Shown: one piece after another, positions 7,324-34,968 of the stretch
Layout: the number at the start of each line of letters is the position of its first letter
Position numbering within the stretch: the first letter of the stretch is position 1
NCBI GenBank assembly: GCA_964558415.1
Contig: CAZLDI010000007.1
Coordinates: 75,898-139,897, forward strand
Direction: 5' to 3'
DNA length: 64,000 nucleotides
Source: an uncultured Dehalococcoidia bacterium
GTDB taxonomy: Bacteria > Chloroflexota > Dehalococcoidia > SM23-28-2 > RBG-16-64-32
Made by a program: the position numbers and the translations under genes
The notes under the pieces: generated by a model
The model's database searches: none
Told to the model about the DNA's origin: nothing
Seen by the model: the letters and a program-made list of their open reading frames with translations, nothing else

Positions 7324-8247
7324 ATGACAGTGAGAGAACCTGCTGCTATCATTCGGCCTACTATGGCTGACCTTTCGTACGATGGGATTGAGGTGGGGAA
7401 GGAGTACGGGCCGTACTATTACCCGCTGAAGGAGCGGATTGGGCGGCACCTGGAGGCGGTGGAGAACGCGCATCCGTGGCACAACGGGCGGTCGCCGTGG
7501 GGGCCGCCGGTGGCGCCGCCGACCATCCTGGGGAACGCGGCGATGCGGTTTCTGGACGACTTCGGGCCGGTGCCGCCGGGGACGCTGCACGCCAAGCAGG
7601 AGATCGAGACGGCGGCGGCGCTGCGGTTGGACCGCAGGCCGATCGGGTACGGTAAGTTCGCCGACAAATACGAGAAGCGGGGCCGGCGGTGGTTTGTGTT
7701 CGAGACGCGCTGGCGGGATGAGACTGGGCTGATCATCGGGAAGAGCCGGATCACGATGGTGTTTCCGAAGGAAGAAGGAAGAAGGAAGGAGGAAGGAGGA
7801 GGGGAGCCGAGAACCGAGAAGCGAGAAGCGGAGCCGGCCCGGAAGAGCGAGTTAGCTGCGATTACGCGCGTTCTGACGCAGGAGAAGATGACGGCGTATA
7901 GCGAGGACTCTGCGAACGCGCTGCGGGGGTCGTCGATTCATGTGCAGCCGGAGGCGGCGAAGGCGGCGGGGTTCGAGCGGACGGTGGCGCAGGGGCTGAT
8001 GGCGGCGGACTATATCGGCGAGCTGATGGAAGAGGCGCTGGGCAGAGAGTGGTACGAGTACGCGGGGCTCTCGGTGACGTTCCTGAAGCCGATCCTCTGC
8101 GGGGACAGGCTGACGGCGAACGGGCGGTTGAAAGAGGAGGCGGAGGAGGGGGCGGTGGTGCGCCGGGTGTATGAGCTGTGGTGCGAGAACCAGCAGGGGG
8201 ACGTGGTGGCGGCGGGGACGGGGAGTTCGCTGGTGATGCCGGGGTAA
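7324..8247 (+). CDS. MaoC-like (R)-specific enoyl-CoA hydratase / hotdog-fold dehydratase with an internal low-complexity linker
   Basis: C-terminal hotdog domain. A K/E/R-rich linker (PKEEGRRKEEGGGEPRTEKREAEPARKSE) is encoded by purine-rich tandem repeats at ~7760-7840. A longer upstream ORF (5893..) is antisense to polA and was rejected. Confidence 0.75.
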   Translation: MTVREPAAIIRPTMADLSYDGIEVGKEYGPYYYPLKERIGRHLEAVENAHPWHNGRSPWGPPVAPPTILGNAAMRFLDDFGPVPPGTLHAKQEIETAAALRLDRRPIGYGKFADKYEKRGRRWFVFETRWRDETGLIIGKSRITMVFPKEEGRRKEEGGGEPRTEKREAEPARKSELAAITRVLTQEKMTAYSEDSANALRGSSIHVQPEAAKAAGFERTVAQGLMAADYIGELMEEALGREWYEYAGLSVTFLKPILCGDRLTANGRLKEEAEEGAVVRRVYELWCENQQGDVVAAGTGSSLVMPG

Positions 8248-8338
8248 GAGAGCGGGCGGCAACTTGACGGCAATAGCGGCGCGCGTATACTAGGTTGCGC
8301 TTCAAGTAACGCCCTGATTCAACCTCAAGGAGACTGTC

Positions 8339-9184
8339 ATGGCTGAATACGCACGGCCGGACTCGCTGGTGTCCACGCAATGGGCGGCGGACAATCTGAA
8401 CAACCCGAAGGTGCGGCTGATCGAGGTGGACGTCGATTCCGCGGCGTACGACACGGGGCACGCGCCGGGGGCCGTGGGCTGGAACTGGAAGTCCGACCTG
8501 GAGACGCAGTTGCAGCGGAACATCGCGGACAAGGAAGGGATGGAGAAGCTGCTTTCCGACGCCGGTGTGGACGGCGACACGACTGTGGTGCTGTACGGCG
8601 ACAACAACAACTGGTTCGCGGCGTACGCGCTGTGGGTGATGGAGTACTACGGGCTGGAGAACGTGAAGCTGATGAACGGGGGACGCAAGAAGTGGGTGGA
8701 AGAGGGGCGGCCGATGTCGACCGAGGCTGCGAAGCACGCGAAGGGCGGCATCAAGCTGGGCAGCCCGAACGCGAAGATCAGGGCGATGCGTGACGAGGTG
8801 CTGAGCCACGTCGGAAAGGCCGGCGGCGCTATGGTGGACGTACGCTCGCCGAAGGAGTACTCGGGAGAGATGCTGGCGCCGGAGAACCTGCCGCAAGAGG
8901 GCTCCCAGCGGGGCGGCCACATCCCGGGGGCGAAGAGCATCCCGTGGGGGCTGGCCTGCAACGAAGACGGGACGTTCAAGAGCGCGGACGAGCTGGTGGA
9001 GCTGTACGGCGGGCAGGGCGTCACGAAGGACAAGGACGTGATCGCCTACTGCCGCATCGGCGAGCGGTCTGCGCACACGTGGTTCGTGCTGACGCACCTG
9101 CTGGGTTATCCGAACGTGCGCAATTACGACGGCTCGTGGACAGAGTGGGGGTCGCTGGTGGGGGCGCCGATCGAGAAGCAGTGA
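8339..9184 (+). CDS. thiosulfate/3-mercaptopyruvate sulfurtransferase (two-domain rhodanese)
   Basis: Tandem rhodanese domains with the active-site Cys in CRIGERSAHTWF. RBS AAGGAGA upstream. Confidence 0.85.
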   Translation: MAEYARPDSLVSTQWAADNLNNPKVRLIEVDVDSAAYDTGHAPGAVGWNWKSDLETQLQRNIADKEGMEKLLSDAGVDGDTTVVLYGDNNNWFAAYALWVMEYYGLENVKLMNGGRKKWVEEGRPMSTEAAKHAKGGIKLGSPNAKIRAMRDEVLSHVGKAGGAMVDVRSPKEYSGEMLAPENLPQEGSQRGGHIPGAKSIPWGLACNEDGTFKSADELVELYGGQGVTKDKDVIAYCRIGERSAHTWFVLTHLLGYPNVRNYDGSWTEWGSLVGAPIEKQ

Positions 9185-15818: not shown

Positions 15819-16229
15819 TCAAGGCTCCATTCGTTTGACGTTCGTGATGCGATCGAAGTCCGCATCGTAGCTGAAGAGCTCCGTCAGGCCCAGCCGCTCC
15901 ATATGCGCGACGGTCAGGGCATCTTCGAAATCGATCCTCGGATGCGAGGCCCAGATGTCCAGCGCCCGCACGCAGGCTCCTTTATGGGCGAGCTTGAGGC
16001 CGCGGAGCGTCAGTAGCGGGCGCAACCGCGCGCCTATGTCCACCGGTGTCAGGCCGTAATGGGCACGGGAACGGAGCACGTAACAGACCTCGGCGATGAT
16101 CACCTCCGACGTCGTCACAACCTCGTGCCCCGCCTTCACTCGCTGAAATAGAGCGAAGCAGGCCTCCGCCTTCCTCTCATCGCCCGCAACCAGATAGCGG
16201 AGGAAGACGTTCGCGTCCAGGAACCTCAC
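15819..16229 (-). CDS. vapC: PIN-domain ribonuclease toxin VapC
   Basis: MRFLDANVFLRYL..., with acidic PIN residues (D5, E, D). Confidence 0.8.
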   Translation of the reverse strand: MRFLDANVFLRYLVAGDERKAEACFALFQRVKAGHEVVTTSEVIIAEVCYVLRSRAHYGLTPVDIGARLRPLLTLRGLKLAHKGACVRALDIWASHPRIDFEDALTVAHMERLGLTELFSYDADFDRITNVKRMEP

Positions 16230-16486
16230 GTCCCGTCGCCGGCCTCCGCTGTCGCTTTCTCATCGCGAGCGGCGCGGCTGACGGACCTGAAGTCCCTGGT
16301 GCGCGTTGCCGGCTTGACCGAGGCAAACGCGGACTCCAGGGTGAATCTGGCGGGAAGCAGCTGGACCTTGTCGTCTTCGATCGAGAATGCGACCTTGTCT
16401 CTTGGCTTAAGGCCGAGAAGGCGCCGCACCTCCGACGGGACGGTCACCTGGCCACGTTGCGTCATTGTCGTAACTATCTCCTTCAT
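16226..16486 (-). CDS. vapB: AbrB/MazE-type antitoxin VapB
   Basis: SpoVT/AbrB swapped-hairpin N-terminus (TQRGQVTVPSEVRRLLGLKPRDKVAF). 4-bp overlap with vapC. Confidence 0.8.
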   Translation of the reverse strand: MKEIVTTMTQRGQVTVPSEVRRLLGLKPRDKVAFSIEDDKVQLLPARFTLESAFASVKPATRTRDFRSVSRAARDEKATAEAGDGT

Positions 16487-16694: not shown

Positions 16695-18338
16695 ATGGCG
16701 ATGATAGACGGCGGCGACCTAGTGGTGCGCGCGATCAAGCAGGAGGGCGTGGATACGATATTCACGCTGTGCGGCGGGCACGTGCAGGCGATCTACGACG
16801 CGTGCCTGGACGAGAACGTGCGGGTGATCGACACGCGGCACGAGCAGGTGGCGGGGCACGCGGCGGAGGGGTGGAGCCGGGCGACGCGGCGCTGCGGGGT
16901 GGGGGTGGTGACGGCGGGGCCGGGGGTGACGGACTGCACGACGGCGATCGCGAACGCCTGGCACAACAAGAGCCCGATGCTGATCATCGGCGGCCGCAGC
17001 CCGCTGTCTCGCTTCGAGATGGGGTCGCTGCAGGATATGGACCACACGGAGATGCTGAAGCCGATCACGAAGTGGGCGAAGTGCGTACACGAGACGAAGC
17101 GCATCCCGGAGTACATCTCGATGGGGTTCCGGGCGGCGCTGACGGGGCGGATGGGGCCGTCGTTCCTGGAGATCCCGACGGACGTGCTGTTCATGAAGGT
17201 GGAGGAGAACGAGGTGTTCTTCCCGCAGAGCTATCGTCCGGAGGGTCGCGTCTATCCTGACCCGAAGAGCGTGCGCAAGGCGGCGGAGGCGCTGCGGAGC
17301 GCCGAGCGGCCGGTGATCATGGCGGGCTCGGCGATCTACTGGAGCGAGGCGCACGAGGAGCTGCGGGAGCTGGCGGAGCTGATGCAGGCGCCGGTGTACC
17401 TGAACGCGATGGGACGGGGCTCGCTGAACCAGGAGCACGCGCTGTTCTACAGCCGCAGCCGGCGGACGGCGCTGACGAAGGCGGACTGCATCCTGGTGAT
17501 CGGGACGCCGATGGACTTCCGGCTGTCGTACGGGAAGCGATTCAACCCCGAAGCGAAGACGATCCAGGTGGACACCGATCCCGCGGAGCTGGGCCGCAAC
17601 CGCGACATCGACATCCAGCTCGAGGCCGACGCCCGGGCGAGCCTGGAGTCGCTGACGGCGGAGCTTTCCGGGTTCAAGGACGATCACAAGGCGTGGTTGG
17701 GGGAGCTGCGGGAGCAGGAGGACAAGACGCGCGCGCAGATGGAGGAGTGGATGGCGAGCGACCGCGAGCCGATCCACCCGCTGCGGTTGTGCGCGGAGAT
17801 GGCGAACTTCGTGGACGAGAACACGATCGTCGTGGGCGACGGCGGGGACATCGTCAGCCACGCCTCGAAGATACTGCCGGTGAACCAGCCCGGGCAGTGG
17901 TATGACCCGGGCCCGTTCGGGACGCTGGGCGTGGGGACGGGTTTCTGCATGGCGATCAACAGCGTGTACCCGAACAAGCGCATCCTGATGGTCAACGGCG
18001 ACGGGGCTTTCGGGCTGAACGGCTTCGACTTCGACACGTTCGTGCGCTTCAACATCCCGGTGGTGTCCGTGGTGGGGAACGACCGGCAATGGGGACAGAT
18101 CACGGTGGGACAGCGCGCGATGTACGGGAAGGACCGGGTGGTGGCGAGCATGCTGGGGGACGAGTGCCGGTACGACAAGATCGTCGAAGGGATGGGCGGC
18201 CACGGGGAGTACGTCACGAAGCCGGACGAGATCCGGCCGGCGATCGAGCGGGCGTTCGCATCCGGGAAGCCGGCGTGCGTGAACGTAATTATGGACCAGG
18301 AGCCGCCTGGGATCATGGGCGGGTACGAGTTTATGTAG
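16695..18338 (+). CDS. thiamine-pyrophosphate-dependent enzyme (acetolactate synthase / oxalyl-CoA decarboxylase family)
   Basis: 547 aa with PYR, central and PP domains. ThDP motif GDGAFGLNGFDFDTFVRFNIPVVSVVGND. RBS GGAAGGAG upstream. Confidence 0.85.
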   Translation: MAMIDGGDLVVRAIKQEGVDTIFTLCGGHVQAIYDACLDENVRVIDTRHEQVAGHAAEGWSRATRRCGVGVVTAGPGVTDCTTAIANAWHNKSPMLIIGGRSPLSRFEMGSLQDMDHTEMLKPITKWAKCVHETKRIPEYISMGFRAALTGRMGPSFLEIPTDVLFMKVEENEVFFPQSYRPEGRVYPDPKSVRKAAEALRSAERPVIMAGSAIYWSEAHEELRELAELMQAPVYLNAMGRGSLNQEHALFYSRSRRTALTKADCILVIGTPMDFRLSYGKRFNPEAKTIQVDTDPAELGRNRDIDIQLEADARASLESLTAELSGFKDDHKAWLGELREQEDKTRAQMEEWMASDREPIHPLRLCAEMANFVDENTIVVGDGGDIVSHASKILPVNQPGQWYDPGPFGTLGVGTGFCMAINSVYPNKRILMVNGDGAFGLNGFDFDTFVRFNIPVVSVVGNDRQWGQITVGQRAMYGKDRVVASMLGDECRYDKIVEGMGGHGEYVTKPDEIRPAIERAFASGKPACVNVIMDQEPPGIMGGYEFM

Positions 18339-18461
18339 GGAGCAGCGATGCGCGCTATCAGCTGATGAGCTCACACTCCGCCGCCCGGGATGATCCACGG
18401 AATTGGCACAGATGTACACGGAGAATGAGCCGCTCGGCTACCCGCAGATGAGAGTAGATGG

Positions 18462-19367
18462 ATGCCACGCATAGACTACGGCGGCGGGCTGACTATCGAC
18501 GCGCCGGAGGGGATGACCGTCCTTGAGACGTCGATCCAGCATGGGCTGGAGCACAGGGCCGCCTGCGGCGGACAGGAGCGCTGCACCACCTGTCGAATCG
18601 AAATACTTGACGGTACTGAGAACTGCCCGCCGAGCACGGCCGGCGAGCGCGAGGTCCTGGAGCTCGGAGGCTTTGGGGAAGACATCCGGCTCGGCTGCTC
18701 TCTCAGGCCATCGGGCGATATCAAGATCCGGCTTCTCGTCCGCGAGAGGATCGGTAAAGAAGACCTGCGACCGGAGGGGATGGCGCGAGAACGGGAGGTG
18801 GCCGTTTTGTTCGCGGATATCCGCAACTTCACCGCCTTCTCAGAGAATCACCTCGCTTTCGACGTCCTGCATCTTCTCAACCGCTACTTCGACCGTATGG
18901 GCACTATCATCGACTTCAATCGCGGCGAAGTGATTGCCTTCCTGGGAGACGGAATCGTCGCCTTCTTCGAGGGCGGCGACCCGACGCGAGCGGCAGTCGC
19001 CGCCACGCGGTGCGCCACCCAGATGCTCAAGGGCGCGCAGGCATTCTCGCGCTACTCAACTGAGCACTTCGGTTTCGATGTGCGGACCGGCATTGGCATC
19101 GCCTTCGGCCCGGCGGTGATCGGCGAGGTCGGGTACTACCGCAACACCCGTCCGAACTGTATCGGCGACGTGGTGAACACCGCGTCGCGCGTACAGGACG
19201 CAACGAAGGAACACGGCGCGTCTCTCCTGGTGACGGACGCCATCCGCAAGCTAGCCGAAGGCAAGTTCGAGTTCGGGCGCGAGTTTACCTGCGAGCTGCG
19301 CGGCAAGGAGGGAGAGCATCAGTTGTACGAAGTGCTGCGGGAGAAGCGAAGTCGCGCTCGTGCTTGA
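18462..19367 (+). CDS. 2Fe-2S ferredoxin domain fused to a class III adenylate/guanylate cyclase catalytic domain
   Basis: N-terminal ~95 aa carry Cys C-x5-C-x2-C...C (ACGGQERCTTC...LGCS). The C-terminal cyclase homology domain has metal-binding Asp residues (VLFADIRNFT, LGDGIVAFF) and transition-state residues (NTASRV). Confidence 0.85.
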   Translation: MPRIDYGGGLTIDAPEGMTVLETSIQHGLEHRAACGGQERCTTCRIEILDGTENCPPSTAGEREVLELGGFGEDIRLGCSLRPSGDIKIRLLVRERIGKEDLRPEGMAREREVAVLFADIRNFTAFSENHLAFDVLHLLNRYFDRMGTIIDFNRGEVIAFLGDGIVAFFEGGDPTRAAVAATRCATQMLKGAQAFSRYSTEHFGFDVRTGIGIAFGPAVIGEVGYYRNTRPNCIGDVVNTASRVQDATKEHGASLLVTDAIRKLAEGKFEFGREFTCELRGKEGEHQLYEVLREKRSRARA

Positions 19368-19490
19368 CGCTGCGTTGTGACACGGGTCACAGGCAAAAGG
19401 CGGGAGGAGGTCTATCATGCGAGCGGGCCGCGCGGTGGCAAGGAGAACTTCGCCGCTCCCGACGCAGGGAGGGAAGGGCCAGGTGACAAG

Positions 19491-21230
19491 ATGAGACTCA
19501 TGGAAGCTGAACGGAAGGCAAGCGTCGACGTCTGCCCCCTCGAAGAGCTTCAGCGCGAGCGCGTGAAGGTCGTCTCGGCGGAGGGGCGCGTAATCGCGGT
19601 GTTCTACGAGGAAGGGAAGCTCTACGCGCTGGACAACCGCTGCCCGCACATGGGCTTCCCGTTGAATCGCGGGACTGTGAAGGACGGCATCCTGACCTGC
19701 CACTGGCACCACGCGAAGTTCGATCTCGCCGGGGGCTGCACGTTCGACCCTTTCGCGGACGACGTGACGCGCTTCCATGTGGAGGAGCGCGAGCGCACGG
19801 TCTGGCTCGATCCGAGGCCGATCGAGGAGGACCGGCGCGTACACTGGCTGGGCAAACTCGACGAGGGGCTGGAACAGAACCTGCGATTAGTGCTGGCGAA
19901 GAGCGTGATCGGCCTCGAGGGGCTCGACGCGACGCGAGATATTCTGACCAAGGCGGCGCTCTTCGGGATACGCAACCGGGTGTCGGGCTGGAGCAGCGGC
20001 CTCTCGATTATGACGGGGATGGCAAACGTGCTGCCGTCGCTCGACGAAGCCGACCGGCCTCTGGCGCTGTACCAGGGACTCGTGCACGTCGCCCGGACGA
20101 CCGAGGGGCAGCCTCCGAGCTTCGATCTCGAAGCACTTAACACAGATGAGAAGCGGCCGGCGCGCTATCTCGACTGGTTCCGGCGCTTCATCGAGGTGCG
20201 GGCGGAGGACGCGGCGGAGCGGACGCTGCGCACGGCGATCCGCATCGGGCTGCCAGAGCGGGCGGTGGCAGACATGGTTTTCGCTGCCTGTACCGACCAC
20301 CTCTTCCTGAACGAGGGGCACTCACTGGACTTCGCGAACAAGGCGTTCGAGCTGCTGGACCACATCGGCTGGGAGCACGCAGAGGAGGTGCTGGTCTCGC
20401 TCATCCCCGACTTCATCCAGGCGACGCGAATGGAAGAGACGTCGCCCTGGCGGCACCCAGTCAACTTACCGGAGCTACTGGGCGAGGTCTACCAGCAGCT
20501 CGATGCGGCGATCGATGAGGGCGGCGGGAAGCTGAACGGATGGGCTGAACACCAAGCGCTGGCGGAGCAGATACTGGACGGCGAGCCGAAGGAGACGCTC
20601 GCTGCGATGCTAGACGCTGTGCGGCAGGGTGCGCCGCTGACGGAGCTTTCGGCGACAGTGGCGTACGCGGCGGTGCGGCGACCGGTGCACTTCCGCGTGA
20701 CGAACGAGTTCGCCGACTGGGACACGATCCACCACACGTTCACGTACGCCAACGGCGTCGACCAGGCGGTGCGGCGGGCGCCGTCAAAGCTGCTGGCGCG
20801 CGGCATCTTCGACGGGGCAATGTCGGTTTACCTGGAGCGATTCCTCAACGTCCCCAAGCAGCCTATACCGACGCCCTCGGGTGGCACGGCCAGTCGTGGG
20901 GAAATATTGGCCTCATTCGACGAGCAAGGGAAGGTGGATGAGGCGGCGCAGCAGGTGGCGGACGCGATCGCCGCGGGGAATCAGAGCGAAATAATTGGGA
21001 CACTGGGCCACGCGTTGCTGCGGGAGGACGCGCACTTCCACCAGTTCCAGATCTACGAAGCGGGACTCCGCCAGTACGGCAACTTCGGTAATACACCGCT
21101 GGGTGACCACGTTCTCATCGGGACGACGCGCTTTCTGGCGGCGCGCTCACCGACGGTGCGGGCGACACCGCAGACGTACGACATCGCGGCGCGGCTGCAT
21201 CGGGGAGAGTCCCTGCACGGGGAGGATTAA
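19491..21230 (+). CDS. Rieske [2Fe-2S] domain protein with a large uncharacterised C-terminal helical domain
   Basis: Rieske boxes CPHMG...CHWHH near the N-terminus. RBS AGGGAGGGAAGG upstream of the ATG at 19491. The ~440-aa C-terminal region has no recognised motifs. Confidence 0.75.
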   Translation: MRLMEAERKASVDVCPLEELQRERVKVVSAEGRVIAVFYEEGKLYALDNRCPHMGFPLNRGTVKDGILTCHWHHAKFDLAGGCTFDPFADDVTRFHVEERERTVWLDPRPIEEDRRVHWLGKLDEGLEQNLRLVLAKSVIGLEGLDATRDILTKAALFGIRNRVSGWSSGLSIMTGMANVLPSLDEADRPLALYQGLVHVARTTEGQPPSFDLEALNTDEKRPARYLDWFRRFIEVRAEDAAERTLRTAIRIGLPERAVADMVFAACTDHLFLNEGHSLDFANKAFELLDHIGWEHAEEVLVSLIPDFIQATRMEETSPWRHPVNLPELLGEVYQQLDAAIDEGGGKLNGWAEHQALAEQILDGEPKETLAAMLDAVRQGAPLTELSATVAYAAVRRPVHFRVTNEFADWDTIHHTFTYANGVDQAVRRAPSKLLARGIFDGAMSVYLERFLNVPKQPIPTPSGGTASRGEILASFDEQGKVDEAAQQVADAIAAGNQSEIIGTLGHALLREDAHFHQFQIYEAGLRQYGNFGNTPLGDHVLIGTTRFLAARSPTVRATPQTYDIAARLHRGESLHGED

Positions 21231-21277: not shown

Positions 21278-21371
21278 CGGGCGTTCGCGTCAAGGAAGCC
21301 TCCGTTCGTGAACGTGATTATGGACCAGGAGCCGCCTGGGATCATGGGCGAGTACGAGTTTATGTAGGGAG
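21278..21371 (+). repeat. diverged direct repeat of the 3' tail of the TPP-enzyme gene (copy 2), 2.95 kb downstream of the native tail
   Basis: The core GTGAACGTGATTATGGACCAGGAGCCGCCTGGGATCATGGGCGAGTACGAGTTTATGTAGGGAG (21308-21371) matches 18279-18342 with 2 mismatches, and weaker similarity extends ~30 bp further upstream. In frame it encodes ...RAFASRKPPFVNVIMDQEPPGIMGEYEFM*, against ...RAFASGKPACVNVIMDQEPPGIMGGYEFM* in the native gene. Confidence 0.85.
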
Positions 21372-21401
21372 AGGCGGTGCCCCGCGGCGGAGAGTAGTCT
21401 C

Positions 21402-22707: not shown

Positions 22708-23121
22708 TCAGGCAGCCGGCTCCACGCGGGTGATGCCTGGCAGGCGGTCGAAGTCCGTGTCCCAGGTGTAGATTTCCGAGAGGCGCTGGGAACGCATGAA
22801 GGCGGCGTTGTACGCGTCCGCAAACGACAGACGGGTTGTCGCGTAGACATCCAGCGCTTCGTAGTAAGTTTGCTTATCGGCGATTCGGACGTTCGGTAGC
22901 GCAAGGACGTACTGCAGGTCGTCCCGGATCTTTGCTCTGGGGACCACGTAGCTCTTCTCGAGGATGAAGACTGTCTCAAAGATGACCATCGGTGAGACGG
23001 TCACCTGTTCTTCCCCAGCTTCCACGCGCAGAAGCAGCGCCACCACCCGCGACGCCTTCTCTTCATCGTCACGGGTGAGAAGGCGGACGAGGATGTTGGT
23101 ATCAAGGAAGCGGTGCGCCAT
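22708..23121 (-). CDS. vapC: PIN-domain toxin VapC (second pair)
   Basis: MAHRFLDTNILVRLL... The start ATG at 23121 was chosen over the longer ORF-caller extension. Confidence 0.8.
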   Translation of the reverse strand: MAHRFLDTNILVRLLTRDDEEKASRVVALLLRVEAGEEQVTVSPMVIFETVFILEKSYVVPRAKIRDDLQYVLALPNVRIADKQTYYEALDVYATTRLSFADAYNAAFMRSQRLSEIYTWDTDFDRLPGITRVEPAA

Positions 23122-23125
23122 GATC

Positions 23126-23383
23126 CTACCGCTCAGTCTCGGACAGTACTTCCTCGGCCACTCCCCGTTCGAACTCTTCGCGCAATTGTCGGAAGTCTTC
23201 GGGCCTGCTGCGCGGTGAGACTGAGCCGTACATCGCAAGAATCCCCGACGCCTTCCTCAGCCTCGCGGTCTCCCCGTCGATCTCGAAGGCGATCTTATCT
23301 CGCGGCTTGAGGCCCAGCCGCAAGCGGATCTCCTTGGGTATAGTCACTTGGCCTTTCACTGTTAATGTCGTTTGTTTCAGCAT
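23126..23383 (-). CDS. vapB: AbrB/SpoVT-type antitoxin VapB (second pair; paralog of 16226-16486)
   Basis: MLKQTTLTVKGQVTIPKEIRLRLGLKPRDKIAF. 4 bp upstream of vapC. Confidence 0.75.
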   Translation of the reverse strand: MLKQTTLTVKGQVTIPKEIRLRLGLKPRDKIAFEIDGETARLRKASGILAMYGSVSPRSRPEDFRQLREEFERGVAEEVLSETER

Positions 23384-23500
23384 ACGCTCCATACCCTCTA
23401 TCCGTAGCAATACCGTCTTCTATCAGTAATACTATCACATGCCGGGTCGACGCAGTTGAGATGTGGGCGGGCATGCCTGAACGCCCGGGGCGCGGCCTGA

Positions 23501-23678: not shown

Positions 23679-24758
23679 CTAGTTGTCGAGGAACTGCTTG
23701 AGCATCGGGCTCATGCGCTCGCGGCGGTCGCCGAGGCCGGAGACCTTTAGGCGATGCATGTACTCGTTGACGCGCTTGCGCTGGACCTGCATGGACAGTT
23801 GGACGCCCTTGTCGATGTTCTTGATGCCGCCGCCCATAAGGATGGCGAGGGCCTCGAAAAGAGCGAAGCTGCGGTCGTCGGCGGTCGGGTCCGGCGTGAG
23901 GGTTGCCTCAACCTTGTCCAGGTAGTGGTGGATCTCCTCGCGCCGCCAGGGCTCGGTGTCCAGAACGTACTTCAGGTGCATGACGCCGAAGCCGAGGTGT
24001 CGCGACTCATCCTGGCCGCACATGCGGAAGATGCGCTTCTCGGCGTCGTTCTGGCCGATGTACTCGCCCATGCGGAACATGGACTGGACGAAACCTTCAG
24101 CGGCGACGTGCATGATGGCGGACATCTCGGTGAAGTCCTGGGCGTCGATGATGACGCGGAGGCCCTGCTGGGGGAGGGAGGAGAGGAGACCACCGCCGTT
24201 GGCGAGGGCGCGCTTGCGGAAGACGTCCAGGTGGCGGGCTTCGTCCATGATCTGGGAGATGAGGAAGAGCTTAACCTCGTGGTGCTCGCTGTTGATCTTG
24301 GGAAGCCACTGGCCGGGGGTGTCGCCGGCGATGAACTCGACCTCGGTAAGCATCGTGCAGAGCTGGCACATCGCGCGCTCCATGTCGTCCGGGAGCGGCT
24401 GGATCTCGTCCCAGGGGATGTCCGTGGCGGATGACCACTGGCGCTGAACCGCCTCTTCGTAGAGGAGGCGCGCGTTCTCGGAGTAGACGTCCGCGGCGTG
24501 AGAGTAGGTGCCCGGGACGCGTGGCGCATCAGGGCGGGCTTTGGAGCCGCGGGCGCGGATAGAACGGTTGTCGCTGTCGGCGGGGACCTCACCAGCGGGC
24601 CCGATCTCGATCTCGTCCAGAGTGAGGCCGCGCTTGCCGGGCTTCGCGCGCATGCCCCAGGGGTGGCCGTTTTCGTCAAGGTTGAGCCAGCTGAGATCCA
24701 GGGGCTGTACTTCGGCGGGCTCGCGGAGCTTCTCGAGGATGTTGACATCGATAGCCAT
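23679..24758 (-). CDS. ferritin-like diiron-carboxylate protein (putative oxygenase/oxidase)
   Basis: Two E...E-x2-H motifs (LTEVE...DEARH and AAEG...QDESRH). 359 aa. Confidence 0.65.
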   Translation of the reverse strand: MAIDVNILEKLREPAEVQPLDLSWLNLDENGHPWGMRAKPGKRGLTLDEIEIGPAGEVPADSDNRSIRARGSKARPDAPRVPGTYSHAADVYSENARLLYEEAVQRQWSSATDIPWDEIQPLPDDMERAMCQLCTMLTEVEFIAGDTPGQWLPKINSEHHEVKLFLISQIMDEARHLDVFRKRALANGGGLLSSLPQQGLRVIIDAQDFTEMSAIMHVAAEGFVQSMFRMGEYIGQNDAEKRIFRMCGQDESRHLGFGVMHLKYVLDTEPWRREEIHHYLDKVEATLTPDPTADDRSFALFEALAILMGGGIKNIDKGVQLSMQVQRKRVNEYMHRLKVSGLGDRRERMSPMLKQFLDN

Positions 24759-32925: not shown

Positions 32926-33347
32926 TAGCCGCGGCACTCCTCGAGGCCGGGAACGAACACGAGGCGCCAAGTTGTGACGACGCCTTCAGATTTGGAGACG
33001 AAAACCCACTCGGTTTCACGCTCCTGGCCGTCGACCAGCTGTACCACGATGGTGCGAGCTTCGTCGCCGACGAAATCAACGGACTTGACGCGTTGGAAGC
33101 CGTCCGGGACGTACTCTTGTGCAAGGGCAGTCACGAGATCAGCTGATATGCATCGCTGGGTGATCTCCGGTGCGAGGTAGTCGTAAAGACCCTCGGGGCC
33201 GTCGGCGGCGTAGGCGTTCGTCGCGAGTTCGGCGACGCCGGCGATCTGGCGAACACGTTCGTCATCAGGTAGATCGCCGCCACCGCCGCTGCAGGCGAGA
33301 GTGATGGCGAGAGGGGCTAGAGCTGCAGTCAAGAGGCCGACCTTCAC
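32925..33347 (-). CDS. hypothetical lipoprotein embedded in the FAS-II-like operon
   Basis: Signal peptide plus lipobox LACS. No known family. Confidence 0.5.
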   Translation of the reverse strand: MKVGLLTAALAPLAITLACSGGGGDLPDDERVRQIAGVAELATNAYAADGPEGLYDYLAPEITQRCISADLVTALAQEYVPDGFQRVKSVDFVGDEARTIVVQLVDGQERETEWVFVSKSEGVVTTWRLVFVPGLEECRG

Positions 33348-33748
33348 ACGGTTACCGATGCTTCGCCGGAGATGAGCAACTCACCCGCCGGATTACGACA
33401 TTCGACCTCGCAGACGGTCAAGGGGCCGTCCACGCGGATTACGCGGCCGGACGCTGTGACTGAATCACCGGGGCGACCGGGCGCGCGCAGGCGGACTTTG
33501 AGGTGTCCGGAGGCAGGCCAAGCCTTTCCGAAAGCGGCTGTGAGCATCTCCGAGATATAAGCGAGGACGAGCATGCCGTGGGCGATCGTGCCACCGAACT
33601 GAGTGCCGGCGGCGAACGTGGGGTCCGTGTGGAGCGGGTTGTGATCGCCGCTCGCGGCGGCATAGTCGTTGATCCTATCCTGCGTGATGATGCGCGTGAC
33701 GCCAGGCAGCTCATCGCCGATCTGAAACGAGCGAACGCCCGCCTGCAT
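33344..33748 (-). CDS. MaoC-like (3R)-hydroxyacyl-ACP dehydratase, HadB-like catalytic subunit
   Basis: Hydratase-2 motif DHNPLHTDPTFA. 134 aa. Confidence 0.75.
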   Translation of the reverse strand: MQAGVRSFQIGDELPGVTRIITQDRINDYAAASGDHNPLHTDPTFAAGTQFGGTIAHGMLVLAYISEMLTAAFGKAWPASGHLKVRLRAPGRPGDSVTASGRVIRVDGPLTVCEVECRNPAGELLISGEASVTV

Positions 33749-34149
33749 CAGGACGCCTCGGTCGGGAAACTGAGCATGGCGCGGCCGGTCATGACGAGGC
33801 CGCCGGATTCGTCGGTAACGGCGACGCTGATGCCCATCAGGACCCAGCCCTGGCGCTCCCCCCGGCTAGTGATGTCCAGGCGCGTAAGCAGACGCTCGCC
33901 CACGCGAACGCTGCGGTGGAACGACAACTCCTGGCCTACGTGTAAAGCGCCAGGAGGGAGGACTGTGCGGTCTAGCAGGGCGCTCACAGACAGCGCGGCC
34001 ACTTCCAGCGGCGGAACGATATCGCCCAGCCGGTCAATTGCACCGTCTTCGACGGCTGAGACGTAGGCGGACACGGCCTGCGGTGATAGGTGATAGGTGG
34101 TGTCCGGGAAACGGTAGCCCCTGCGCGCAGTCTCCAGAAGGGAGGGCAT
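33748..34149 (-). CDS. HadA/UPF0336-like hotdog protein (non-catalytic partner of HadB)
   Basis: 133-aa hotdog-like protein lacking the hydratase motif. It lies immediately upstream of the HadB-like gene, as hadA does in mycobacteria. Confidence 0.55.
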   Translation of the reverse strand: MPSLLETARRGYRFPDTTYHLSPQAVSAYVSAVEDGAIDRLGDIVPPLEVAALSVSALLDRTVLPPGALHVGQELSFHRSVRVGERLLTRLDITSRGERQGWVLMGISVAVTDESGGLVMTGRAMLSFPTEAS

Positions 34150-34156
34150 GGAGGGT

Positions 34157-34528
34157 TCAGCTTCGCCCGGCGAACCGTGACATGTCTATAACGCGGCGCT
34201 CGTGCAGGCCTTCGCCGATCTTCGCGCCGGTCTCGTTATAGGCTTCGACCTCGAAGACTACTTTGCGGCCGTCCTGCTCTTTGACGCGCCCTTTTATGGT
34301 GACCTTCATGCCGATGGGCGTGGCGGCCATGTGCTTCAGATCGACGCGGTAACCGACGGAGCTTTCGCCGGAATCCTGGAAGGGGATCAGCATCTTGAGG
34401 CAGAGTCCCTCGATGTGAGCGACCATCGTCGGTGTGGAGTACATGGGGACAGGGAGGTGCTTAACGCCCATGTCCGGGGTAGTGTCGATGACCATCTCGT
34501 CGCTGGTGCCCTGCGGGATGTCTTTCAT
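34157..34528 (-). CDS. hotdog-fold thioesterase-like protein
   Basis: 123 aa with a thioesterase-superfamily pattern. Confidence 0.55.
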   Translation of the reverse strand: MKDIPQGTSDEMVIDTTPDMGVKHLPVPMYSTPTMVAHIEGLCLKMLIPFQDSGESSVGYRVDLKHMAATPIGMKVTIKGRVKEQDGRKVVFEVEAYNETGAKIGEGLHERRVIDMSRFAGRS

Positions 34529-34647
34529 GCTGCCTCCACCTTGTTCTCAACCGGACTCAGTATAAGGGAGGCACGAAGCGTCAAAGCAACACGCCGGTAG
34601 GCGCATGCCAGCGAACGCTGGCCTGACGGATGCTAGAATCGCACGTG

Positions 34648-34968
34648 ATGGCGAAGGTAACTATCTTGCCCCTGGAAGAGACGGTGGAGGCAGCGCTGGG
34701 GCAGACGATCATGGAGGCGGCCTGGGCGCACGGGCTGTACTGGCCGACGACGTGCGGGGGGCAGGGGATCTGCACGACGTGCGCTTGCACCGTGAACCAA
34801 GGTGCGGAAAACCTGGATGAGATGGGCCGCGCCGAGCGCAAGACTTTGGCAGAGGAGCTTGGAGAAGGCGCCATTCGGGTACGCTCCCTGCGGTTGGCCT
34901 GTCAGGCGCGCGTAAGGGGGGATGTGACGGTCACGAAGCGGGGCGTGCGGCCGGAGGAGCCTGTCTGA
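34648..34968 (+). CDS. 2Fe-2S ferredoxin
   Basis: CGGQGICTTCAC...C motif. Confidence 0.8.
   Translation: MAKVTILPLEETVEAALGQTIMEAAWAHGLYWPTTCGGQGICTTCACTVNQGAENLDEMGRAERKTLAEELGEGAIRVRSLRLACQARVRGDVTVTKRGVRPEEPV

Follow-up and report, generated by a model that had tools for sequence, protein, structure and literature searches.

To our knowledge, the membrane-bound CyaC of Sinorhizobium meliloti is the only Fe-S-containing class III nucleotide cyclase that has been studied. CyaC is described as an adenylate cyclase of this class carrying two haem B groups and a [2Fe-2S] cluster, the activity of which is redox-sensitive and responds reversibly to the oxidation and reduction of quinones (as summarized in PMC10463352, citing Wissig et al. 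2019). Related 'ferredoxin-associated' class IIIb cyclases with an FrdC/SdhC-like anchor of six transmembrane segments (6TM), exemplified by R. palustris Q132R4, form cluster 1 of Beltz et al. 2016 (PMC4821796).

The window, i.e. the whole stretch of 64,000 nucleotides analysed here, encodes a protein in which a ferredoxin domain (Fer2) is fused to a class III cyclase homology domain (CHD; gene A), followed by a gene for a Rieske protein (gene B; Table 1). Residues 3-291 of A align with residues 251-543 of CyaC at 36% identity over 289 residues (BLASTP, E 3e-53), and A is shown by this alignment to be homologous to CyaC over both domains. A is a variant of the CyaC design already described, and this homology to a cyclase published as redox-sensitive and [2Fe-2S]-containing lends support to the idea, raised in a preliminary description of this DNA, that the cyclase is redox-gated. 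The same description had recognised no such architecture among characterised cyclases. The Fer2-cyclase architecture is, however, widespread and neither rare nor uncharacterised: full-length matches were counted in 181 plasmid or chromid records of rhizobia and in about 50 of the 80 retained genome loci, which span many phyla. The view of an unrecognised architecture is not supported, and is in part refuted by the characterisation of the membrane-anchored CyaC; no literature on soluble Fer2-cyclases was found among the papers searched.

Table 1. Positions of the A-B gene pair, its domains and its flanking features in the window
Feature	Positions	Strand	Basis
TPP-dependent enzyme gene (acetolactate-synthase-like), upstream conserved neighbour	16695..18338	+	Pfam, NCBIfam
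Direct repeat copy 1, TPP gene 3' tail and 13 further nt	18249..18351	+	repeat comparison
Gene A, soluble Fer2-CHD nucleotide cyclase, 301 aa	18462..19367	+	Pfam Fer2 and Guanylate_cyc; CyaC homology; AlphaFold model
Fer2 [2Fe-2S] domain of A, residues 1-92, predicted ligands C35/C41/C44/C79	18462..18737	+	invariant Cys
Short linker of A, residues 93-108	18738..18785	+	low pLDDT
Class III cyclase homology domain of A, residues 109-295	18786..19346	+	D119, D163, N239, R243, K282; purine-selecting A159/N232
A-B spacer, 123 nt	19368..19490		GGGAGGGAAGG ribosome-binding site upstream of ATG 19491
Gene B, Rieske plus uncharacterised helical domain, 579 aa	19491..21230	+	homologues, Pfam Rieske
Rieske [2Fe-2S] domain of B, residues 12-106 of the 579-aa protein	19524..19808	+	Pfam Rieske, Rieske_2, Rieske_4; predicted ligands C51, H53, C70, H73
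C-terminal all-alpha domain of B, residues 116-579	19836..21227	+	without family match; AlphaFold model
Direct repeat copy 2 (downstream of B), a non-coding TPP-tail remnant	21278..21380	+	repeat comparison

In every architecture class Fer2 lies directly N-terminal to the cyclase domain, and with the exception of one sequence 37-49 residues separate its fourth Cys from the first catalytic Asp. Recurrently, this core is combined with a second redox module, which can be of the cytochrome-b anchor, globin or haem peroxidase kind, or a Rieske domain attached to either terminus. About half of the genome loci (~24 of 48) encode 6TM with four His upstream of Fer2, and Fer2-CHD-peroxidase and globin-Fer2-CHD fusions are also present among the relatives. 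The Rieske domain is N-terminal in the P0046 group (Rieske-Fer2-CHD) and C-terminal in L019, L021, L022 and L024 (Fer2-CHD-Rieske), which have a further Rieske gene downstream; these N- and C-terminal fusions are independent events. The fused Rieske domains are only ~27% identical to that of B, the large C-terminal domain of which is missing from the fusions. No membrane anchor is present in A of the window or in its Chloroflexota clade. Furthermore, no conserved effector or partner gene was identified among the 77 ORFs flanking Fer2-CHD genes in other phyla (cNMP_binding in two, Rieske in two).

Domains and active site of the ferredoxin-cyclase

A matches the Pfam families Fer2 (PF00111; residues 7-83, E 1e-7, 32.1 bits against a cut-off of 21) and Guanylate_cyc (PF00211; residues 109-285, E 2e-20, 73.7 bits against 21.9), and B matches Rieske (PF00355; E 2e-17, 63 bits against 20.3). 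All three families score above their cut-offs, and these domains and their motifs bear out the fusion of a ferredoxin to a class III cyclase beside a Rieske protein, as originally proposed. The cysteine set of A (C35-x5-C41-x2-C44-x34-C79) satisfies the adrenodoxin/putidaredoxin spacing C-x5-C-x2-C-x(34-37)-C, and the closest sequence matches of its Fer2 domain (PDB, NCBIfam) are of the adrenodoxin homologue, ISC ferredoxin, terpredoxin and putidaredoxin types. These four cysteines are kept in 92-95 of the 98 rows of two family alignments, the other rows being fragments with gaps there. Of 48 distant genome loci, 47 keep them as well, the sole exception being truncated. The ferredoxin-type cysteine set noted earlier is accordingly complete and invariant on alignment. 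Like these cysteines, the metal-binding D119 and D163 and the transition-state residues N239 and R243 are invariant across about 150 relatives; the phosphate-binding Lys/Arg is also invariant. These comparisons show that A carries a complete set of predicted adrenodoxin-like [2Fe-2S] ligands and, behind a short linker, a cyclase domain in which every metal-binding and transition-state residue is retained. No N-terminal extension precedes Fer2, and a hexahelical anchor with four haem-ligating His is missing.

The AlphaFold monomer of A has a pLDDT of 88.3 and a pTM of 0.64, with residues 96-105 below a pLDDT of 50, and gives no confident packing of Fer2 against the cyclase domain. In Foldseek, the modelled cyclase domain matches CyaC (Spirulina), Cya2 and CyaB with TM-scores of 0.85-0.89 and an rmsd of ~1.9 Å, and its predicted fold is that of a canonical class III cyclase.

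Class III cyclases canonically select ATP by a Lys paired with Asp or Thr, and GTP by a Glu paired with Cys or Ser. In alignments to OaPAC and CyaC, the purine-selecting positions of A are A159 and N232, and the canonical pair is missing. The cyclase domain, initially described as catalytically intact, is so with regard to its metal-binding Asp, Asn and Arg residues but not its purine-selecting pair. An A/N or S/N pair is present throughout the close clade of A, compared with K/T in 29 of 48 genome loci, in CyaC and in the membrane-anchored relatives. The product of A is probably cAMP but uncertain, because the Lys/Thr pair is replaced by Ala/Asn; with the purine-binding Lys missing, doubt extends to the activity as well as the product.

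The Rieske protein and the gene neighbourhood

The mechanical ORF of B spans 19377-21230 (617 aa) from a GTG start at 19377, whereas homologues and the GGGAGGGAAGG ribosome-binding site support an ATG start at about 19491 (579 aa). The predicted cluster ligands in C51-P-H53 ... C70-H-W-H73 are invariant in the B family, the disulfide cysteines of high-potential Rieske proteins are missing from the sequence, and the best PDB matches of this domain are Rieske-type ferredoxins. For the C-terminal ~460 aa, sequence searches of Pfam, NCBIfam and PDB gave no match, nor does this domain match Pfam in any of 46 diverse family members; AlphaFold models it as all-helical, with ~25 helices (pLDDT 83.7), in agreement with the Rieske centre on an uncharacterised helical domain of the preliminary description. 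A homologue search with B gave more than 7860 matches, and its C-terminal domain is represented by 1600 clusters, nearly all with an N-terminal Rieske domain. B, an enzyme-like protein, belongs to a very large and strongly conserved family, and has several conserved His and one conserved Lys.

The alpha subunits of Rieske non-haem iron oxygenases have an SRPBCC-type C-terminal catalytic domain with a 2-His-1-carboxylate iron site. B was ruled out as a conventional member of this group, as its C-terminal domain is all-alpha and without a Ring_hydroxyl_A, VanA_C or SRPBCC match; PDB oxygenase matches are confined to its Rieske part. The sole non-Rieske fold match was 8yxs (Foldseek probability 0.99 over 431 columns), which is weak (TM 0.30/0.37, rmsd 12.6 Å, E 0.04). 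The corresponding enzymes BTG13/BruN presumably belong to the Pfam family Questin_oxidase, a member of which is encoded beside the B homologue in L129, and an hhalign comparison of this protein with B was negative (probability 0.3%). A relationship of the B C-terminal domain to BTG13/BruN or Questin_oxidase is not supported by this single weak Foldseek match, the negative hhalign result and the lack of Pfam matches in the 46 members.

Neither a terminator-like site nor a promoter-like site on the + strand was found in the A-B spacer, and the two genes are probably co-transcribed. No regulatory RNA, tRNA or terminator was found in or around the pair, and no CRP-like effector was matched within the window. 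The order TPP-A-B is kept in four lineages (the window, L094, L097 and L128), whereas L086, a 59% relative, has the reversed order and a divergent B subfamily (45% identity). Most A relatives at 50-62% identity lack a B-like neighbour (L084, L087, L089, L091, L099-L102). Most B-family genes are in turn found without a cyclase beside them (L124-L127), which argues that B is not a dedicated partner of A.

The bracketing of the pair by copies of the TPP gene tail, noted previously, is real: the two copies are 103-nt direct repeats with 89% identity. L128 has no second tail copy downstream of B, and copy 2 is closer to the TPP tail of the window (89% identity) than to that of L128 (84%), so that the tail duplication is younger than the gene order. 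GC content is even across the region. The conserved gene order, the absence of copy 2 from L128 and the uniform GC content do not support the earlier view that the pair was acquired as a unit in a tail-bracketed insertion, nor a horizontal acquisition with a target duplication at its borders. A phage or plasmid origin was likewise rejected, as phage matches correspond to the cyclase domain without Fer2, and plasmid matches to rhizobial CyaC-like genes.

Proposed redox coupling and its alternatives

We consider it somewhat probable that A is a soluble, anchor-less redox-gated cyclase of the CyaC type with input from the Rieske centre of B. The oxidation state of the Fer2 cluster would set the activity of the cyclase homodimer, the oxidised form possibly being the active one by analogy with CyaC. 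The cluster could exchange electrons with a second redox module, represented here by the Rieske centre of B as the product of a separate neighbouring gene, and the cyclic-nucleotide output might mirror the redox state of B or its turnover. Class IIA Rieske oxygenases provide for electron flow between an adrenodoxin-type cluster and a Rieske centre of this kind, and since that of B lacks the high-potential disulfide cysteines, electron flow between A and B would be thermodynamically ordinary. Such redox-coupled signalling is plausible because A is a relative of the redox-controlled CyaC and is encoded beside B, its probable redox partner. The functional tie to a Rieske centre proposed earlier is further supported by the independent N- and C-terminal Rieske fusions and the conserved A-B synteny.

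Alternatively, A might sense the integrity of its cluster, with a holo to apo switch upon loss of or damage to Fer2 through O2, NO, peroxide or iron starvation, and B unrelated to the signal and merely sharing an operon or neighbourhood. Many close A relatives stand alone without a fused or adjacent redox module (L084, L089, L099-L102), and sensing via cluster lability is the usual mode of Fe-S regulators such as FNR, IscR and NsrR. We nevertheless regard this as unlikely, as [2Fe-2S] clusters held in a Fer2 fold typically carry electrons and are stable, CyaC as the one characterised relative is described as reversibly responsive to quinone oxidation and reduction, and the recurrence of fusions with haem and Rieske modules points to electron exchange. 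The adjacency and probable co-transcription of A and B could also reflect a Fer2 domain that mainly serves as physiological electron donor for B catalysis, as in class IIA oxygenase systems, where Rieske centres receive their electrons from putidaredoxin-type ferredoxins, the cyclase being a secondary passenger that reports flux or has little regulatory role. This seems very unlikely in view of the thousands of B homologues without an adjoining Fer2-cyclase, the stand-alone ferredoxin of the same subfamily encoded in the window (34630-34968), the lack of a reductase gene beside the pair and the strict conservation of the cyclase catalytic residues. Least probable of all is that A, having lost the adenine-binding Lys and exchanged Thr for Asn, is not a purine-nucleotide cyclase in its own clade but an inactive scaffold or an enzyme of shifted substrate. 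The clade-wide A/N or S/N pair would fit such a pseudo-cyclase, but the invariant metal-binding Asp, Asn, Arg and phosphate-binding Lys/Arg and the canonical predicted fold argue against it, and Rv0386 of M. tuberculosis, with Gln/Asn in place of the canonical pair, is reportedly an active adenylate cyclase.

Returning to the redox-gated cyclase, the position of Fer2 next to the cyclase domain, together with the exchange of the second redox module between cytochrome b, globin, peroxidase and Rieske (fused at either end or neighbouring), suggests that Fer2 may be a general transducer of diverse redox inputs into a cyclic-nucleotide output. A bolder and rather unlikely extension is that A and B together form a device by which the electron flux of an enzyme is translated into a second messenger. 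In this view B, with its more than 7800 homologues, would found an undescribed class of Rieske enzymes, in which the Rieske centre feeds a catalytic domain that is all-alpha, and Fer2 of A would be in redox equilibrium with this centre, turnover being read out as a cyclic nucleotide that, given the Ala/Asn pair, is possibly not cAMP; Fer2-CHD would then be a universal 'redox transducer' cassette for haem, Rieske and quinone sensors.

Comparison with described systems

The helical domain of B was compared with the BTG13/BruN-type four-His non-haem iron dioxygenases, which have a carboxylated-Lys iron site (PDB 7Y3W, 8YXS; PMC11575538). B has the Foldseek match to this type and several conserved His and a conserved Lys of its own, but the TM-scores are low and the Questin_oxidase profile comparison was negative, as given above. 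Like class IIA Rieske oxygenase chains with a putidaredoxin-type ferredoxin, the locus encodes an adrenodoxin/putidaredoxin-like [2Fe-2S] module beside a low-potential-type Rieske centre. In contrast to these chains, the ferredoxin of A is fused to a signalling output, the non-Rieske part of B is all-alpha without a Ring_hydroxyl_A/SRPBCC match, and no reductase gene adjoins. With haem-based sensor cyclases (H-NOX soluble guanylate cyclase, globin-coupled), A shares the control of a class III cyclase dimer by a redox- or gas-reactive metal cofactor domain, as predicted here, and globin-Fer2-CHD proteins exist among its relatives; however, the cofactor next to the cyclase domain of A is predicted to be an Fe-S cluster and not haem, and no signalling helix or coiled coil lies between sensor and cyclase.

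[quoted passage not shown] Six hydrophobic segments with spaced His are encoded upstream of Fer2 in L007 and ~23 other alphaproteobacterial loci, whereas A and its Chloroflexota clade are without this membrane anchor. CyaC (SMc01818) shares with A the Fer2 domain directly N-terminal to the class III cyclase domain, the same four Cys, two metal Asp, Asn and Arg, and a short Fer2-CHD linker of similar length. It differs in the class IIIb Lys/Thr purine pair (Ala/Asn in A), in being flanked by LysR and other regulators instead of a Rieske-protein gene, and in its own 250-aa 6TM di-haem-B anchor, which is described as taking electrons from quinones. As a soluble protein of 301 aa lacking such an anchor, A would be far easier than CyaC to study by spectroscopy, redox titration and structural work.

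Domains and catalytic sites of the Fer2-cyclase

The Fer2-cyclase gene (A) and the neighboring Rieske protein gene (B) are encoded on the same strand downstream of an acetolactate-synthase-like, TPP-dependent enzyme. Pfam searches matched all domains named in the preliminary description. In A, Fer2 covers residues 7-83 (E 1e-7) and is followed by Guanylate_cyc at residues 109-285 (E 2e-20), and B contains a Rieske domain (E 2e-17). The motifs quoted in that description, C35-x5-C41-x2-C44-x34-C79 in A and C51-P-H53 ... C70-H-W-H73 in B, are correct.

Features of the locus and its surroundings in the window
Feature	Position	Strand	Remarks
VapBC-type toxin-antitoxin pair	15819-16486	-	PIN + MazE/PrlF-like antitoxin
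TPP-dependent enzyme gene	16695-18338	+	acetolactate-synthase-like
Direct repeat, copy 1	18249-18351		TPP-gene 3' tail; 103 nt, 89% identity
Gene A (Fer2-cyclase)	18462-19367	+	301 aa; Pfam Fer2 + Guanylate_cyc
Gene B (Rieske protein)	19377-21230	+	mechanical ORF from GTG 19377; probable start ATG 19491
B C-terminal all-alpha domain	19836-21227	+	family P0121-P0390
Direct repeat, copy 2	21278-21380		downstream of B
VapBC-type toxin-antitoxin pair	22708-23410	-	PIN + MazE/PrlF-like antitoxin
Putative di-metal protein	23679-24758	-	359 aa
Small ORFs	33344-34528	-	adjoin ferredoxin
Stand-alone [2Fe-2S] ferredoxin	34630-34968	+	112 aa

Based on its cysteine spacing and best sequence matches (an adrenodoxin homologue, ISC ferredoxin and terpredoxin), the Fer2 domain groups with adrenodoxin/putidaredoxin-type ferredoxins. 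In an alignment of 98 database relatives and 48 more distant genome loci, its four cysteines are invariant in all full-length sequences, as are the metal-binding residues D119 and D163 of the cyclase homology domain and its transition-state residues Asn239 and Arg243, while Lys282 is nearly invariant. The modeled cyclase domain superposes on the class III structures of Spirulina CyaC, Synechocystis Cya2 and P. aeruginosa CyaB (TM 0.85-0.89, about 1.9 A), and the linker between both domains is disordered in the monomer model and contains no coiled coil. Adenylate cyclases carry Lys and Asp/Thr at two purine-selecting positions, which correspond to Ala159 and Asn232 in A when aligned to OaPAC and Sinorhizobium meliloti CyaC. 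Members of the close clade of A encode Ser/Asn or Ala/Asn, and more distant relatives the class IIIb pair Lys/Thr. The nucleotide product of A can therefore not be read from its sequence, and the proposed catalytic integrity of the cyclase is borne out for the Asp, Asn and Arg residues but not for the noncanonical purine pair.

The window also encodes a stand-alone ferredoxin, which is 35% identical to the Fer2 domain of A, shares its CGG..C.TC and RLAC motifs and is adjoined by small ORFs on the minus strand.

The Rieske protein and the history of the locus

Translation of B most likely starts at the downstream ATG, as suggested by the length of its homologues (about 579 aa) and by a GGGAGGGAAGG ribosome-binding site located upstream of this codon. 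The Rieske domain has none of the additional disulfide cysteines seen in high-potential Rieske proteins and is followed by about 460 wholly helical residues (AlphaFold, pLDDT 83.7, pTM 0.84) with no sequence match in Pfam, NCBIfam or PDB. The B family comprises more than 7860 matches at 67-85% identity, and the C-terminal domain alone forms 1600 representative clusters at 50% identity in Chloroflexota, SAR202, Rokubacteria and others, nearly all with an N-terminal Rieske domain. B is an autonomous, strongly conserved protein that became the neighbor of a Fer2-cyclase in the A clade. Its only fold match other than Rieske proteins is BruN (8yxs), a four-His non-haem iron dioxygenase of the BTG13 type (PMC11575538), with a probability of 0.99 but a TM of 0.30/0.37 and an rmsd of 12.6 A. 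Furthermore, a 77% identical B homologue (L129, 109-2924) is followed 39 nt downstream by a PF14027 Questin_oxidase gene, although the B family and this neighbor gave a negative profile comparison (probability 0.3%). Conserved H270, H277, H414, H415, H517 and K284 would be compatible with a candidate metal site.

Four loci share the gene order TPP enzyme, A, B, namely that of the window and L094, L097 and L128 (A identities of 83%, 74% and 82%, respectively for the latter three); the L097 contig opens with the final 23 nt of the TPP gene. No terminator-like site was found between A and B. In L086, the order is reversed relative to the window: a 585-aa B-family protein of a different subfamily (45% identity) is followed 20 nt later by a 59% identical A relative. 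Against a dedicated partnership, however, B is missing from the neighborhood of most A relatives at 50-62% identity, and B-family genes normally occur without a cyclase, often adjoining an alpha/beta hydrolase.

Copies of the TPP-gene tail bracketing A and B had been read as marking an insertion acquired as a unit. The 103-nt repeat is real but does not demonstrate joint insertion of A and B. The TPP-A-B order is shared by four lineages, and L128 lacks the second copy after B. This copy is more similar to the TPP tail of the window (89%) than to that of L128 (84%), so that the duplication appears younger than the gene order. Across the A-B region, GC content is flat, and it is uniform over the 64-kb window (0.61-0.68). 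Local reshuffling of these genes is seen in related loci, which carry an Ank gene before A (L098) or a TPP tail, a GIY-YIG nuclease-domain ORF and a truncated Ank before A (L105, 273-554).

No tRNA gene or Rfam match was found in the whole 64 kb, and GC skew stays positive throughout (0.03-0.29 in 2-kb windows). Two VapBC-type pairs flank the block of TPP, A, B, glyoxalase and ankyrin genes. A further protein contains two E-x-x-H motifs (DEARH and DESRH) and weakly matches R2-like ligand-binding oxidase in NCBIfam (E 2e-5), with no match in Pfam or PDB; it probably represents a divergent di-metal protein of the ferritin-like type.

Distribution and accessory redox modules of Fer2-cyclases

The Fer2-cyclase architecture is common, and one of its members, CyaC of S. 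meliloti, has been characterized. A genome scan identified full-length genes (31-42% identity) in Leptospira, Leptonema, the cyanobacteria Tumidithrix, Tychonema and Microcoleus, many Alphaproteobacteria, Planctomycetota, Poribacteria, Marinimicrobia, Zetaproteobacteria and others. In addition, a tblastn search of plasmids and chromids yielded 181 records with at least 80% coverage, mostly from rhizobia, including the gene annotated as cyaC in S. meliloti. A aligns with CyaC residues 251-543 across Fer2, linker and cyclase domain (36% identity, E 3e-53). Two A relatives at 50-55% identity (L087 and L091, Fer2-cyclase at about 8001-8900) share a neighborhood that comprises RNase HII, several consecutive small ORFs lacking Pfam matches and, about 0.4-2.4 kb downstream, an SPP1_portal-like gene. 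This neighborhood may represent a prophage or GTA-like region.

Fer2 is located directly N-terminal to the cyclase domain in every verified architecture, with 37-49 residues between the fourth Cys and the first catalytic Asp in all but one sequence. This core is flanked by a second redox module of several kinds. About 24 of the 48 genome loci add a 6TM anchor of ~250 aa with spaced histidines (six hydrophobic segments with His33, His74, His111 and His156 in L007). Other cores are fused to an N-terminal globin (metagenomic proteins P0075, P0091 and P0094) or a C-terminal haem peroxidase (Leptospira noguchii L050, 8001-9593; Leptonema L023, 7932-9551); no descriptions of either fusion were found. 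A Rieske domain is attached C-terminally in L019, L021, L024 and L022 (Mesorhizobium calcicola), the first two with a further stand-alone Rieske gene immediately downstream, and N-terminally in P0046 and seven further members of a Chloroflexota group, so that Rieske domains joined the core at least twice independently. No conserved pattern was found among other genes flanking the Fer2-cyclase loci.

Proposed redox input and comparison with CyaC

A would most likely function as a soluble CyaC-type redox-gated cyclase, in which the redox state of the [2Fe-2S] cluster would control the catalytic homodimer via the short direct linker, and the Rieske centre of B would supply the input in the A clade. 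Electron exchange between adrenodoxin-type clusters and Rieske centres is ordinary chemistry in class IIA Rieske oxygenase systems, and would be so here since B lacks the high-potential disulfide cysteines. The domains, ligands, CyaC homology, fusion pattern and synteny are observed; we infer cluster binding by A, redox control of its activity and the polarity of this control, the nature of the product, and electron exchange between A and B. Control of A by its redox state or cluster is likely, and B as its input is a tentative assignment, somewhat less probable than not.

According to Klein et al. 2023 (PMC10463352, citing Wissig et al. 2019), S. meliloti CyaC belongs to the class III adenylate cyclases and contains a [2Fe-2S] cluster as well as a 6TM anchor that binds two haem B. 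Beltz et al. 2016 (PMC4821796) used bioinformatics to define the membrane-anchored, ferredoxin-containing cyclase class. The interpretation in the preliminary description is partly supported: the proposed redox coupling gains from a homologue of A reported to be redox-regulated, and for the same reason loses its novelty. The architecture, which that description did not recognize among characterized cyclases, is widespread across bacteria. No paper on a soluble Fer2-cyclase was found in the literature searched. Whereas the input of CyaC is a quinone-reactive di-haem anchor, the Rieske centre of B is proposed for the A clade, and A is a soluble variant of a known cyclase type, with a Rieske protein as its proposed partner and an unusual nucleotide-selectivity pair.
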